Assembly (NCBI GenBank): GCA_964016885.1
Contig: OZ024753.1
Coordinates: 1,116,001 to 1,180,000 of the forward strand
DNA length: 64,000 bases
Reading direction: 5' to 3'
From: Eledone cirrhosa
Lineage: Eukaryota
Each line of letters starts with the position of its first letter. Positions within the stretch are counted from its first letter, which is position 1. Shown in pieces: positions 9,088 through 49,684 of the stretch. A program made the position numbers and the translations under genes. The notes beneath the pieces are model-generated. The model had not been told where the DNA came from. It did not search any database and worked only from the letters and a program-made list of their open reading frames with translations.

Positions 9088-9360
9088 AATTTCTGCCGGA
9101 CCGGCAACCGCTCTTTCAAACCAGTTCCTGTACACAGCTAAGTATTCTATAAGTCTCTAGCTGTGTCATTCTCGATAAAAGCACTGGATATGTAGTCCTG
9201 ATGATTTCTAACAAGAATGAAACGCGTAGATTACTTCCCTTGCTTTTATCGAGAATCTAATTGTAATACGTGACGTATTCTATTCTATAGCGATTAGGTC
9301 TTCAAAATGTTTATTATAAACATACAGAATATTTTCGAATATTCTATGTCTATATTCATA
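9088..9360 (+). mobile_element. Penelope-like pseudo-LTR fragment (family A) in (TA)n
   Basis: About 270 bp of complex sequence between TA tracts; homologous to 33641-33975; contains a hammerhead. Confidence 0.6.
9192..9234 (+). ncRNA. Type I minimal hammerhead ribozyme motif (family A)
   Basis: GTAGTC-CTGATGA-t-TTCT aaca AGAA-t-GAAA-CGCG-TA-GATTAC; 6-bp stem I, palindromic stem III ACGCGU, GUA triplet; outer ATTCTCGATAAAAGCA/TGCTTTTATCGAGAAT stem. Confidence 0.8.
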
Positions 9361-11064
9361 TATATATATATATATATACTGTATATATATATATATATAT
9401 ACTGTATATATATATATATATATACTGTATATATATATATATATACTGTATATATATATATATATATATATATATATACTGTATATATATATATATATAT
9501 ACTGTATATATATATATATATATATATATATATATATACTGTGAATTCTCTCTCCCACGTGTGGCTGGACGGTTGCTTTAGATTCTTTTAGAGTTGTCTG
9601 AAATGTATCGCCTTACGCACGCTGATGAACCATGGGCTAATCATTTCTCTTAACAACTTATTTGGCGAAACAGATCTTTTTGGATTTGTACGTCTGTATT
9701 AGATAGTTATCGAGGTACGTATTTACACTTTAATTTATACTTTTAATTATTGTGTGTCTACTCTGCCTTCCATGGGCTATAGATTCCATGCACTGATGGT
9801 TTTTCCCTGTTTGACTGATGGCGCACTATCTCTCTCTCTCTAGTGTGTTATCTTTTCTACATATTGTATTATATATATATATATATATATATATATATAT
9901 ATATATATATATATATATATATATATATATATATATATATATATATATATATATATACATATATATATATATATAACGAAGGAAATGTGGTAAGGAACCA
10001 GGTGGACCATAACGCACCAAAGTACTCAATACTTAGGGTAGTAGAGTGGGTAATATATATATATGTGTGTGTGTGTGTGTGTGTGTGTGTGTGTGTGTGT
10101 GTGTGTGTGTGTGTAGTGTTGCTCTGAGATATTTATTGAAGTATCAGCATGCCTATTGTTTCATACTTGCTGAATGGACAGTGTAGACGTTGTCATTGTT
10201 GTGTGGTTAATAGATTCGCTTCATAACTACGTGATTTCCGTTTCACTTCCACAACGCGAAACCTTGGACATAAATCATCTTCCATAGCCTGGGGTGAATC
10301 AATGCTTTGTGAGAGAAATTTGGCTGACGGAAAATGAGTGGAAGTTTGCAAGAAAGAGCAGAACCAGCGTTCCTGTTCTTGGATGGTAGATAATCTGTTG
10401 GTCATTTTAACCCGAACCTCGGACACGAAGAAGTTTATATGTGGTCACTCTACCTGATAGAAATAACAACAATATCTGCTTCAAATCAAAACCTACCGTC
10501 TCAAAAAAGAACCCACTGTATAATGTGGTTTTGTATTTCCTGTAAATAGTAGGGAAACGTCAGAATAGTTTGGGGTAAATTACCTTTGATCATATATCTA
10601 TTCGATCTCAGCTAAAGAACTAAAACCTGAGCCTTTAGAAGAATCTATTTTGATGTAAGCGTTTGGCTAGGTTTCTGGTCAGAAGATAACCTCTTTCCTT
10701 CCTACCACAAATCTTGGAGGCCATGAAAAGAGTCACAGGCGTTGTCCTTCGAACATTAATGAAGCGATAATGTAGAATTTTTTGTAATGGAGATTTTACG
10801 TATTGTTATAAGTAAGCATAGTTACGCGTCCATCTCATAGATCCGTTAATATTGACCTTAAGTTTCTAAATCACACTTAATTTAATATCATAACGTTGTT
10901 TCATGACCTTTGAAGGCATATATGTAGTTATTTCTTTTTTCTTTTTCTGTCTCCCGTTTGGTTCTGTTGCTTAATTATAAGGCATATTACCATGGCTTAC
11001 TAGATCTTTAAAATCGTTAAATAAATAAATAGATAAATAATCAACCATCTTATCAAACACTATT

Positions 11065-12068
11065 GAGATGTGTTACAGCATTACCCCAGACAGCAGTGAG
11101 TTGTGTTACTACCTCAGACAACAGTGAGGTGTGTTACAATACCTCAAACAACAGTGAGGTGTGTTACATTACATACCTCAGACACCAATGAGATGTGTTA
11201 CAGTACCTCAGACAACAGTGAGGTGTGTTACTACCTCAGACAACAGTGAGGTGTGTTACAATACCTCAGACAACAGTGAGGTGTGTTACATTACATACCT
11301 CAGACACCAATGAGATGTGTTACAGTACCTCAGACAACAGTGAGGTGTGTTACTACCTCAGACAAAAGTGAGGTGTGTTACTACCTCAGACAACAGTGAG
11401 GTGTGTTATAATACCTCAGACATCAATGAGATGTGTTATAATACCTCAGACAACAGTGAGGTGTGTTACATGACATACCTCAGACACCAATGAGATGTGT
11501 TACAGTACCTCAGACAACAGTGAGGTGTGTTACTACCTCAGACAACAGTGAGGTGTGTTATAATACCTCAGACACCAATGAGATGTGTTATAATACCTCA
11601 GACAACAGTGAGGTGTGTTATATTACATACCTCAGACACCAATGAGATGTGTTACATTACCTCAGACAACAGTGAGGTGTGTTACATTACCTCAGACACC
11701 AATGAGGTGTGTTATAATACCTCAGACACCAATGAGGTGTGTTACTACCTCAGACATCAATGAGGTGTGTTACAATACCTCAGACAACAGTGAGGTGTGT
11801 TACATTACATACCTCAGACACTAATGAGATGTGTTACAGTACCTCAGACAACAGTGAGGTGTGTTACATTACTTACCTCAGACACCAATGAGATGTGTTA
11901 CAGTACCTCAGACACCAATGAATGAGGTGTGTTACTACCTCAGACATCAGTGAGGTGTGTTACAATACCTCAGACATCAATGACGTGTGTTACTACCTCA
12001 GACAACAGTGAGGTGTGTTACAATACCTCAGACACCAGTGAGGTGTGTTACAATACCTCAGACACCAA
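11065..12068. repeat. 27-34-bp hairpin minisatellite (about 30 or more units)
   Basis: ACCTCA-GACAACAG-TGAGGT-GTGTTAx unit with variable 3' linker. Confidence 0.95.
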
Positions 12069-12136
12069 TTTAATACATGTTCCAGTTGTATGTTGCAGTT
12101 CATTTAAGTTATTGAATATCTATCGGTATACTTCTA

Positions 12137-12516
12137 ATAAAGGTTTCTCATTTAGGCTCAAGGCCAACAATTTTTTGGAGGAGAGGAAAGTCGATAAATC
12201 GACCCTAGTGCATGACTGGTACTTTATTTTATCGACCCCGTAAGGATGAAAGGGAAAGCTAACCTCGGCGGGATTTGAACCCCAAAACGTAAAGAGACGT
12301 AACTATATACCGCAAAGCATGTTGTCTGACGCTCTACCAATACTGCCAATGCCCCGCCTTAATATTGGATATCTATAGGTATACTTGTAATAATTGTTTC
12401 TACTTTTGGCACAAGGCCAGCAATTACCCAGTGCATTACTGGTACTTTATTTTATTGACCCCGTAAGGATGAAAGGCAAAGTTAACCTCGGCGGGATTTG
12501 AACTCAGAATGGCAAG
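12137..12516 (-). mobile_element. Two tandem SINE family 1 copies (12137-12360, 12389-12516)
   Basis: Both match the family and are separated and flanked by a triplicated ~30-bp sequence. Confidence 0.8.
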
Positions 12517-47681: not shown

Positions 47682-48281
47682 AGAATGCTCTGTATATTCT
47701 GTAGTTTTTTCTAATTAAGTATTTCACTTGGTTACTGTATTAGCTGTATTCAAGTTATAGGAACAAAGAATTAGTTTGGAAAAAGTTTTCTTCGGTTCTT
47801 TATTTGTGTTAGCTTATAGATTACTTTCACATGAAAACTTTTTTGTTAAATTTATTTTTATTTTTCAAATTATTGTTGATGTCTGAAATTTACAATTTTG
47901 TATGTTATTCAAAATTCCATTTTGGAATATAAATTTGAGAAAGAAATCCTTGATGATAAAGTACTTTTAGTTGTTACAAGTGAAAAATAGGAAGTTATTT
48001 AAATAAAAATTATATTTTACCTTACAATTTCCATAATGTTTAACTATTTCAGTTTTCACGCACACACACATATATATATATATGTATGTGTATATATATA
48101 TATTCAGCGATATGTATATATATATATTCAGCGATCGATATATATATATATGTAAAAGTTCTATTTAAATTGTTGGGATACAACAAGCAAATATTTTTAT
48201 AACTGATATAAAGCACTCAACAAATAATTGGAGTAAAAATACGATATTAACAAATGGAAACTATATTTATAAAACCATATT

Positions 48282-48346
48282 TATTTCATTATACATATTT
48301 CAAGGACACCAAGTTAAATTATGGTGTGCTTTCATCAGATAAAATA
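48282..48346 (-). ncRNA. Family D hammerhead motif, left arm of the palindrome
   Basis: Inverted copy of 48476-48540; its stem II 3' strand TGGTGTCCTT pairs slightly better. Confidence 0.7.
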
Positions 48347-48475
48347 TAATATAGAGCAGTTTTATAAATAAATATTGACATACCCTTAAAGAATGCAACC
48401 ATCTAGGAGCTTCCAACAGTAATGGTTGCATTCTTTAAGGGTATGTCAATATATTTATAAAACTGCTCTATATTA

Positions 48476-48540
48476 TATTTTATCTGATGAAAGCACACCA
48501 TAATTTAACTTGGGGTCCTTGAAATATGTATAATGAAATA
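48476..48540 (+). ncRNA. Type I hammerhead motif (family D), right arm of a long palindrome, sense in SNX intron 9
   Basis: TATTTTAT-CTGATGA-AAGCACACCA...TGGGGTCCTT-GAAA-TATGTA-TA-ATGAAATA; 8-bp stem I plus outer ATATTTATAAAAC/GTTTTATAAATAT. Confidence 0.7.
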
Positions 48541-49684
48541 AATATGGTTTTATAAATATAGTTTCCCTTTGTTAATATCGTATATATATATATATAATAT
48601 TAATAATGCATTTTTGTTTTTCCATCAGTACATTATCTGTTGTCTTTACTTTGTTATATGTTTATTAACAAAAAAAAGATGATTTATTGTTCTATTATAT
48701 GTGAGTTGATAAGAATATCAGTTAGTAACTTCCTCCTTCCTCTCCACTTTCATTACCTCCCTTGCTTCTTACCTCAAACCCTGCTTATTTACATTGATTT
48801 TATCATATTGAACCTATTGTTACCCACATTAAAACCTATGTAAGTTTCAATAAATCCTACTATAACCTGACAAAGATCTATTCCTAAAAACATTGTTGTG
48901 GTCCAATAAAGGCTGGCAGAATCATTCTCTCACCTTTGTGGCAAAAATGAATTATTATTAAAGGCATAGAGTTAGGTTTATTTAATTCAGTGAGAATATT
49001 TTTAGAATTCCAAAGGTGATTGATAGATTACAAGTTGGGAATTATGACAAGACTCTTTACTCTTAGAGTTCAAAGGATACCAGTGTCAACTTTGATTAAA
49101 TAAAAATACCAGCCAAATACTGGGATGGAGGGTGTCTATCTAAACTATATTCCTCCTCTACTCCATGAGAACGGTAAATATTTTCCTCCCTCCTTCATAT
49201 TGCTACCTCTGATATTCTGTTCAGGTACATTCTGATTGTATCACCTAGGAACCTGACCCACAAATCTTTCAAGGACTACACTATTGCAACCAGTTTTTAA
49301 GTACTGCTCCTCATTTATTATATGTTGCATCTATTCTCAAAAGCATTTTTCTTATTCCTGTCTCCTTTTATCATTTACCAGCATTTTAGGTATTCTAATT
49401 TTTCTCTGTAACGGTTGCCTCTTTTTGTTTCTTTTTTTTGCTTTTGTATGTTCTGACGGTTTATTAAGCAGTTTTGATGATGACTTAATGAGTTCATATA
49501 AATATTCTTTTTGGTCTCTTAGTAATTATTTCCATTTTGTCTATGTATATGTTTGTGATGTGTGATAGAAGAAATCTAATATTCTATTTAGTAACATGGT
49601 TGAGGCTGTTGTCTTTTAGAAAATGTTACTTTGCTAGAATATTTTTTTCCAGTATTTTTGAAAATAACTTAATAGAAATCCCTC

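Follow-up and report, generated by a model that had tools for sequence, protein, structure and literature searches.

Head-to-head retrozyme arrays with Penelope-type ends around hammerhead motifs in the Eledone cirrhosa genome

Hammerhead motifs in the window

The window, a stretch of 64,000 nucleotides from the genome of Eledone cirrhosa (GCA_964016885.1, contig OZ024753.1, positions 1,116,001 to 1,180,000), harbors copies of hammerhead-bearing families A to E (Table 1). A first-pass annotation had placed six hammerhead motifs in it, and each of these is present at its position. A type I descriptor (CUGANGA, stem II, GAAA, stem III, UH and a stem I of at least 4 bp) gave five matches, with C3 of the core at 9198+, 13093+, 33807-, 48338- and 48484+. 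The comparison with dinucleotide-shuffled sequence proposed by the annotation (200 block-wise shuffles) gave a mean of 0.015 matches with a maximum of 1 under the loose filter, and no matches under the palindromic filter. As judged from their core and three stems, with an open stem I, the five matches are genuine type I hammerhead sequences. The sixth motif (C3 at 16511+) misses the descriptor due to a mismatched third pair in stem II and a stem I of 4 bp. Its CUGANGA core is undamaged in 13 of 16 other family C copies, which were selected via the 3' half of the motif, and when aligned by hand it is a plausible real motif.

Table 1. Features of the hammerhead-bearing families in the window. 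In family A, nt 1 of the monomer is the first base 3' of the predicted cleavage site.
Feature	Position	Strand	Remarks
Family A retrozyme copy, single arm, nt 169-310 then 1-139	9087..9367	+	99% identity to monomer L031:4312-4621; stops at the fixed short end of the family, in (TA)n
A hammerhead, type I	9192..9234	+	6-bp stem I, core from 9198, palindromic stem III; stem II of U.U and 3-4 bp; predicted cleavage after 9228
Family E fragment (fifth hammerhead family)	12933..13062	+	5' core strand damaged
Family B retrozyme copy, single arm, nt 371-422 then 1-275	13072..13398	+	89-94% identity to L050:3082-3503; stops at the tailed end, adjoining (TA)n
B hammerhead, type I	13087..13129	+	core starts at 13093; cleavage predicted after 13123
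Family E fragment	16196..16320	+	broken off at first base of core
Family C inverted arm with long (tailed) end	16319..16481	-	reverse-oriented match to ribozyme-downstream sequence, in 7/16 C loci
Family C forward arm with hammerhead	16502..16624	+	stops at short end; stem I starts at 16507 and core at 16511; cleavage predicted after 16560
Older A subfamily, minus arm, nt 204-309 and 3-139	33636..33883	-	G17 hammerhead at 33771-33813
Older A subfamily, plus arm, nt 43-164	33882..34003	+	tailed end
Family D (putative Hydra-clade PLE 3' end), minus arm	48153..48402	-	hammerhead 48282-48346; long end ~137 nt beyond cleavage site
Family D, plus arm	48407..48582	+	hammerhead 48476-48540; short end 49 nt beyond cleavage site

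The copy at 33807- is a diverged relative of the family at 9198, as had been noted before, and with its G17 it is likely inactive. In families A, B and C a U.U replaces the standard pair at the opening of stem II, which may lower ribozyme activity. An Rfam search with family A gave only a sub-threshold match to HH9 (19.2 bits versus a gathering score of 52), and family B gave no match. Families C and D were covered by the search with the whole window, where no hammerhead occurs among the matches listed (150 of 191).

Several broader claims of the annotation stand: families A, B, C and D have no sequence in common, they target (TA)n tracts, and the link of the motifs to Penelope-like elements (PLEs) and retrozymes is borne out by insertion structure and, for D, by linked ORFs. 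Other claims need revision. The foldback shape is indeed seen in the islands at 33.6, 16.3 and 48.2 kb, but its cause is two-armed inverted insertion; the islands of B and C, described as single elements, are composites that each open with a family E fragment; and in place of minimal hammerheads, A and B carry the canonical type. The label non-autonomous does not hold for every family: D forms the end of a protein-coding Hydra-clade PLE, as read from its motifs (see below). Genome copies were located by pattern searches, and the predicted hammerheads, counted as sequence motifs, number in the tens of thousands.

Families A and B as tandem retrozymes

The sequence organization of families A (310 nt) and B (422 nt) is that of non-coding retrozymes in tandem. 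The monomers, of 310 nt in A (35% GC) and 420-433 nt in B, each contain a type I hammerhead and are repeated in tandem, and no linked ORF was found in the arrays mapped. At least 10,150 motifs of family A and at least 13,880 of family B occur genome-wide, and there are more than 1,200 very young insertions with nearly identical sequences. All sampled A and B arrays lie within the first 116 Mb of a single contig.

When folded as circles, the monomers are predicted to have 60-71% of their bases paired, with stem I closing across the junction (z -5.1 for A and -9.7 for B); the predicted antisense folds are stable as well (z -5.0 and -4.6). The stem III palindromes would pair between copies with energies of -7.5 and -4.8 kcal/mol, while formation within one copy would cost ca. 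5 kcal/mol, in agreement with the earlier proposal that a palindromic stem III is suited to dimers. Lone copies would thus cleave poorly, because stem III needs two copies to form. Four contig-only runs of unrecorded type all contain the 310-nt head-to-tail joint, and in two of them it occurs as a single closed contig; such a joint looks the same whether it comes from a circle or a tandem.

Layout of the two-armed arrays

Complete two-armed insertions account for 43 of the 54 family A loci. They are head-to-head tandem arrays with outer ends at fixed sites inside the monomer (approximately nt 125-131 and 163-170), one of these ends being tailed, and with a variable inner junction. One tailed and one short end were found in 43/43 complete insertions, of which 11 were selected via the ribozyme motif and 32 via the tailed end, where only the opposite end is free of selection. 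Of the other A loci, five also have two arms but are complex or truncated by the stretch; six show a single orientation, four of the latter being cut by a stretch edge or gap. Older, diverged A copies share the two-armed layout. In family B, 9 of 34 loci are complete and two-armed; every one of them ends at nt 275 on one side and at nt 216-223 on the other, with the fixed outer ends of the family placed at about nt 216-219 and 275. Most of the single B matches sampled have one arm only. A target duplication of 14 bp is present at two A loci (L032 and L038); at the other eight of the ten loci examined for it, the flanks are TA-rich and unreadable.

The inner junctions differ at nearly every locus, and the only recurring one (L038 and L080) sits on different haplotypes. 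The distribution of the inner ends in family A is slightly non-uniform (KS p 0.045), and only 3 of 86 lie within 5 nt of the cleavage site; template jumping between cleaved linear monomers finds no support here. The tailed arm is the longer one in 27 of the 43 insertions and the other arm in 16, with a correlation between the two lengths (rho 0.44, p 0.003). Folding back of the first cDNA on itself was rejected because either arm can exceed the other.

Another reading takes the arrays for foldback DNA transposons whose inverted termini consist of tandem repeats, or for assembly artefacts: the overall shape resembles that of foldback elements, and no strand-change joint was listed for the four contig-only runs when aligned to one monomer. 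Such an origin is nevertheless very improbable in view of the unequal ends with a single tail, the variation in inner junctions, the distinct haplotypes that carry the recurring junction, and the identical layout of old diverged copies. Furthermore, nine contigs of one public run, which may come from the assembly's own sample, leave the monomer at its short end and continue into (TA)n.

The combination of an inverted 5'-truncated copy, a one-sided tail and a (TA)n target, which marks PLE-type insertion, is present in families A, B, C and D. Published PLE insertions are described as having an inverted truncated copy and a one-sided tail of 30-40 bp (Craig 2021, PMC8557442); the tails here are ca. 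35-40 nt in A, 56-60 in B, 67 in F, 45-59 in G and 87 in D. Insertion of A and B by PLE machinery is very probable. No description of two-armed retrozyme arrays was found in searches of the open-licence literature. The word 'inverted' is missing from the main text of PMC7229834, and in that of 10.64898/2026.07.22.740005 it occurs only within a reference title.

Coding Penelope-like elements and families C to E

From its motifs, read against the clade description in PMC8557442, family D represents a decayed PLE of the Hydra clade, of which it forms the 3' end; on the same description an initial label 'Neptune' was dropped. At three of six chosen D loci, ORF pieces lie 1.5-1.7 kb upstream of the hammerhead, which provides the linkage to RT/GIY-YIG ORFs that the annotation had proposed as a check, and at locus L044 a unit of 4.1 kb is bounded by two hammerheads. 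No short tandem monomers occur in the first 100 D places. The D pieces are 41% identical to family F, an intact PLE of 714 amino acids whose look-alikes carry the GIY-YIG and RVT_1 families. Family F was recovered by protein searches, as was G, a PLE of 1217 amino acids that we take to be Neptune-like by its linker motif only. Sequence searches against Pfam, NCBIfam and PDB gave no name for the PLE proteins.

Features that D and F share with the Hydra clade as described in PMC8557442, a table of which includes Hydra-1_Obim, are the CxCX5C linker, CxxC and CxH motifs with the last E and N in their midst, a hammerhead, (TA)n targets, and inverted truncated copies with a one-sided tail. RWK and DKT are present in F and DKT in related pieces, while neither was seen in the D pieces translated. 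Unlike the Hydra elements of that description, which are generally under 3 kb, the D and F units measure 4.1-4.3 kb and have a long 3' region rich in microsatellites, and their tails are 67-87 nt instead of 30-40. These coding PLEs run from hammerhead to hammerhead and stop just beyond the cleavage site.

The intact PLEs of this genome end like the A arrays. All seven two-ended insertions of the 714-residue PLE that were scored have one short and one long end, and paired ends also occur in D and the 1217-residue PLE. None of the families A, B and C shows sequence similarity to the three coding PLE families examined (D, F and G).

Families C and E likely represent the 3' ends of other families, either PLEs or retrozymes. 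No short tandem monomers were found among 16 C loci and no ORF beside 20 family C tail ends; for E, which adjoins B and C in the window, no linked ORF was found.

Template of the arrays and proposed origin

The 38 A arrays that were typed fall into 15 haplotypes, 10 of which were seen once. In 24 of the 25 arrays compared, the two arms match in haplotype (permutation mean 4.75, maximum 13 in 100,000); in L094 the arms differ. Private variants are common to both arms in only 1 of 58 testable cases. Pure arrays with many rare haplotypes, together with the scarcity of shared private variants, fit a one-monomer template better. Family B arrays are often mixed, and L050 is a mosaic. Alternating ABAB arrays were considered as proof of a dimer circle and proved ambiguous: the pattern of L051 (four monomers) fits such a circle, but L216 does not do so cleanly, as neither the monomers next to its ABAB run nor its opposite arm match one of the two types.

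Seven inherited alleles in the hammerhead region are located at N7, in loop 2, at stem I sites where wobble pairing is kept, or change U.U to A-U, whereas five of five private substitutions break a pair or the core; alleles were scored in tail-picked A arrays and positions were assigned by manual reading. The preservation of the fold by all inherited variants suggests that it is under selection.

We propose, with a probability of about 0.68, that A and B are hammerhead tandem retrozymes present as head-to-head pairs, in which a PLE RT has copied an RNA circle from both sides of the cut. An array would be transcribed, and pairs of hammerheads would cut the transcript into monomers that are ligated to circles. 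A PLE endonuclease would then make a staggered cut in (TA)n, for which the 14-bp duplication is the visible trace. Both 3' ends would prime within the RNA at two fixed sites, corresponding to the observed outer ends, and each primer would be extended round the circle, in as many as 14 turns to judge from arm content. Finally, the two cDNAs would be connected, and the observed point of connection varies and often has a short overlap. Family D, with its linked ORF pieces, would be what this reaction leaves, in 5'-truncated form, when it acts on a coding PLE of the Hydra clade. The parts of this scheme differ in strength: formation of the arrays at insertion is highly likely, and a circular RNA is the probable template.

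A PLE protein has been described that cuts and extends both strands, and the two internal sites at which its RT starts bracket the tail; in vitro, hammerhead cleavage was dispensable and unprocessed RNA was the main substrate (Frangieh 2024, PMC11167929). This dispensability lends weight to an alternative in which the two-ended priming is the same and the RT copies a linear multimer, the uncleaved transcript of a long uniform array, with a minor role of the ribozyme. Single-direction arrays of at least 25 monomers (L082 and L109) are possible sources, and the mixed B arrays agree with multimer templates. The pure arrays of rare haplotypes and the 1/58 shared private variants, however, favor a one-monomer template, and inherited variants spare the hammerhead; we regard the multimer as rather unlikely.

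Another possibility is that a short two-armed PLE-type insertion came first and that unequal crossing-over later expanded each arm into a tandem array, a mechanism put forward for retrozymes of vertebrates (10.64898/2026.07.22.740005). Local growth is seen in the repeated variants of the long A arrays L082, L084 and L109, which point to DNA-level expansion, and in the ABAB block of L216. As a general explanation it is improbable, since most A arrays hold singleton variants only, the arm lengths are correlated, and the short arms at L034 and L036 already cross a monomer junction without containing one full monomer.

Copying of a circle remains our preferred reading. A more far-reaching version, which we consider tentative and somewhat below even odds, is that each array goes back to one event: two RTs start 35-60 nt apart on a single ribozyme-made circle, from the two sides of a staggered cut, and go round many times. 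It further holds that the 4.1-4.3 kb coding PLEs share this circle route, and that A and B are viroid-like passengers recognized by shape, without sequence homology to their helper. If so, pLTRs, tails and inverted copies would follow from one mechanism. No partner PLE was found among D, F and G, with which A and B have no sequence in common and from which they differ in tail length; this weighs against the proposal.

The spread of animal retrozymes and the cause of tandem inverted PLE insertions are called open in PMC7229834, PMC8557442 and 10.64898/2026.07.22.740005. The two-armed arrays likely document PLEs that copy a small circular RNA repeatedly from both sides of a break, and they tie retrozymes to PLE machinery via insertion structure instead of co-occurrence. 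Young insertions would record the footprint of the enzyme: where it primes, how it staggers the cut, how many turns it makes and which template it copies. The substrates can be named exactly, a (TA)n target and a 310-nt RNA with its two start sites, along with two intact candidate enzymes. An RT that turns a small circle into kilobase concatemers on both sides of a break would, if true, be of technical interest.

Relation to known elements

Families A and B resemble the metazoan non-LTR retrozymes (Cervera and de la Pena 2020, PMC7229834; Li, Clavereau and Pollet 2026, 10.64898/2026.07.22.740005), which are low-GC, non-coding tandem monomers of 150-450 nt, with a type I hammerhead per monomer, a short palindromic stem III, no LTR and thousands of copies. 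The target duplication of more than 4 bp given for this group compares with 14 bp at two loci of family A. Different from these retrozymes as described are the head-to-head pairs, the fixed internal ends and the one-sided tail, as well as the U.U that opens stem II; no sequence link of A or B to a PLE pLTR was found.

Like A and B, the non-autonomous Chlamys elements (MRC1) described in PMC8557442 are non-coding PLE passengers with multicopy head-to-tail insertions. According to that description their 3' ends are similar to those of their autonomous partner, whereas no partner similarity was detected for A and B, and the Chlamys clade is without canonical hammerheads, unlike A and B. The PAc Poseidon element studied in vitro (PMC11167929) is a coding element, in contrast to A and B, but its reported reaction corresponds to our proposal in the cutting and extension of both strands, the internal RT starts and the tail between them.

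Hammerhead motifs in the window and the genome

Five sites in the window pass a type I hammerhead descriptor, compared with a mean of 0.015 across 200 shuffles of the sequence. All five are among the six hammerheads listed in the first-pass annotation; the sixth (16511, plus strand) fails the descriptor with a mismatched stem II, and possesses a complete core and a 4-bp stem I. The CUGANGA core of this motif (family C) is kept in 13 of 16 other copies. The proposal that the families are unrelated in sequence was borne out, with no similarity among A, B, C and D when these were compared. 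Searches of the 3.0-Gb host genome gave 10,150 matches for family A, 13,880 for family B and 3,984 for family D, and for family C 69 matches to the ribozyme and 1,168 to the tailed end; only exact patterns were counted, so these are lower bounds, and the reversed controls gave 0 throughout. A fifth hammerhead family, E, yielded 10,223 pattern matches. No hammerhead match reached the Rfam gathering score in searches with A and B.

Architecture of the retrozyme insertions

Family A has a monomer of 310 nt, with arrays 98-100% identical to a single natural monomer and an older subfamily of about 95% identity to it. Fifty-four loci (L, numbered stretches of the genome) were mapped: the first 100 ribozyme matches fall in 14 of them, and the other 40 were picked by tailed ends lying farther down contig C1. 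Complete insertions, in which a minus arm is followed by a plus arm and the RNA 3′ sides point outwards, were found at 43 of these. Five loci are two-armed yet complex or cut off (L001, L076, L083, L084, L114) and were excluded from the architecture counts; six have a single orientation. In all 43 complete insertions one outer end lies at monomer nt 163-170, counted from the first base after the predicted cleavage site, and the other was scored at 138-139, which includes target-derived TA bases, so that the true end is at about nt 125-131 and the tail measures about 35-40 nt. A 14-bp target duplication is legible at two of ten loci examined (L032 and L038), whose flanks consist of more than plain TA.

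The inner junction, where the arms meet, may fall anywhere in the monomer, and only 3 of 86 arm starts lie within 5 nt of the predicted cleavage site. Overlaps of 1-48 nt occur at 29 of the 43 junctions (these are BLAST-based, so overlaps of 1-2 nt may be chance), six are blunt and eight have 1-18 extra bases. Either arm can be the longer one (27 vs 16); median arm lengths are 1.5 and 0.9 kb and the two are correlated (rho 0.44). Family A arrays frequently sit in (TA)n adjoining the ends of other families of Penelope-like elements (PLEs) or retrozymes (L077, L081, L087, L102, L115), which gives rise to composite islands.

Family B, with monomers of 420-433 nt, is older and more mixed than A. 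Complete two-armed insertions are present at 9 of 34 loci, with ends at 275 and 216-223; loci picked as single hits are mostly one-armed.

If both 3′ ends at a staggered cut acted as primers, each side would receive one antisense cDNA, which would account exactly for a minus arm followed by a plus arm and for the target duplication. The one-sided tail would arise from two start sites on the RNA, as biochemical work has shown for PAc, a Poseidon-type PLE studied in vitro (PMC11167929).

Template of the arrays

The template was continuous at the predicted cleavage site, because both starts are 125-275 nt beyond it and the arms run across it up to 14 times. Judged from these sequences, the template of A and B arrays would be a circle or an uncleaved multimer. 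The reported dispensability of cleavage in PAc (PMC11167929) favours the multimer; the circle is favoured by the purity of the arrays and by the selection that seems to act on the ribozyme.

As to purity, both arms carry the same haplotype in 24 of the 25 A arrays with at least two full monomers per arm (permutation mean 4.75, maximum 13), L094 being the sole exception. The 38 A arrays with at least three monomers contain 15 haplotypes, 10 of them singletons. Of 58 private variants that could be tested, a single one is present in both arms, and of 79 a single one is shared by two arrays; this tally leaves out L083's second insertion as well as L001 and L042, which are older copies. If the template were a linear multimer derived from an older array, that array's scattered variants would be expected in both arms; the pattern speaks instead for one monomer copied many times, and we infer that pure arrays with new fixed variants match repeated copying of a single monomer. 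Repeated variants in the long arrays L082, L084 and L109 indicate that DNA-level expansion occurs too. A-to-G changes (RNA strand, paired regions) make up 4 of 16 fixed variants, vs 3 T to C (A haplotypes, nt 20, 218, 259 and 276; window 33771-33813, minus strand), too few to suggest RNA editing. Two B monomer types alternate in L051, and L216 holds an ABAB block, possibly copied from a dimer circle, from which the outer monomers and the opposite arm differ. L221-L222 (G000:C1:53.354-53.371 Mb) contain an old B array, diverged and about 35 monomers long, which is a possible source of mixed templates.

As to selection, variants were compared in tail-picked A arrays, i.e. not selected by ribozyme, with structural positions assigned by hand. 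Of the seven inherited alleles in the hammerhead region, N7 and loop 2 account for two each, two are A-U/G.U swaps in stem I and one changes U.U to A-U; the private substitutions all (5/5) disrupt the core or a pair, besides one unclassed private insertion. This contrast suggests selection on the predicted ribozyme. When the monomers were folded as circles, stem I formed over the junction in both families, and the z-scores relative to 60 shuffles were −5.1 for A and −9.7 for B. The computed stem III palindromes of both pair between two copies and not inside one copy, in agreement with the published dimer model (PMC4209133); lone copies, such as those in the window, are thus predicted to cut poorly.

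Coding PLEs and the smaller families

The hammerhead elements had been regarded as non-autonomous. This view does not hold for family D, the 3′ end of a decayed PLE of Hydra-clade type: at 3 of 6 loci picked for wide spacing, the hammerhead is preceded, 1.5-1.7 kb upstream, by pieces of reverse transcriptase and endonuclease, and L044 contains a 4.1-kb unit bounded by two hammerheads. Family C copies are short, single or two-armed, with no tandems or linked ORF found at the loci examined. A protein search revealed a young relative, family F, with an intact 714-aa frame 41% identical to D and at least 150 copies (protein identity 93-96%). Its RWK, DKT, CxCX5C and CxxC/CxH motifs agree with the description of the Hydra clade in PMC8557442. 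The nearest Atlas clusters, taken as leads, include GIY-YIG and RVT_1 families. Ends of F lie 40-47 or 107-113 nt past the predicted cleavage site, one of each in all seven two-ended insertions scored (variant locus L164 left out); those of D lie at 49 or about 137 nt, and the window copy shows one of each. A second young PLE, G, likewise shows both a short and a long end, and its numerous copies are near-identical over the endonuclease part. Three more D-type hammerheads with differing stem II sequences (L152:1137, L153:239, L157:5751) suggest further PLE families.

In full copies of family E outside the window, as read by hand, stem I has 5 bp and stem III has 4 bp; with this stem III the hammerhead could fold as a monomer. 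Copies begin a few bases from the core, and inverted pairs meet at that same point (L063, L068, L070, L071, L075, L094, L251).

Relation to published work

Non-LTR retrozymes have been described before, as have their circles; PMC7229834 offers tandem-cDNA copying and a PLE helper as hypotheses. Phylogeny ties retrozymes to PLE pseudo-LTRs in a 2026 preprint, which also suggests local amplification (10.64898/2026.07.22.740005), inverted truncated copies and tails of PLEs are described in PMC8557442, and circles were proposed as PLE templates in 2014. Searches of the open-licence literature on retrozymes, hammerheads and PLEs turned up no description of retrozyme arrays that have two arms and PLE ends. 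What is new is therefore the insertion-level record joining retrozymes and PLEs; its separate parts are of known kinds.

Other features of the window

The window (G000:C13:1116001-1180000) is AT-rich with abundant microsatellites. Several of its hammerheads share the sense strand of a sorting nexin-1-like gene and are probably intronic or located upstream of that gene.

Coordinates of features in the window and of representative PLE copies
Feature	Location	Strand	Remarks
Broken frames	window 3182-4399	−	presumably transposase-like
Family E copy	window 12933-13062		directly 5′ of B copy
Family E copy	window 16196-16320		directly 5′ of C copy
Sorting nexin-1-like gene exon	window 45166-45372	+	possible further exons near 15.1-15.3 and 41.9-42.1 kb
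tRNA-like match exceeding Rfam gathering score	window 56329-56399	−	probably a SINE head
Non-LTR retrotransposon frame, RVT_1 and PHD-like finger	window 57932-59530	−	unrelated to hammerhead families
PLE family F	L151:1736-6221; also L148, L154, L158		4.3 kb hammerhead to hammerhead; ORF begins 260 nt past core
PLE family G, 1217 aa	L212:1574-5707		asparagine-rich insert; hammerhead-like core with irregular stem III
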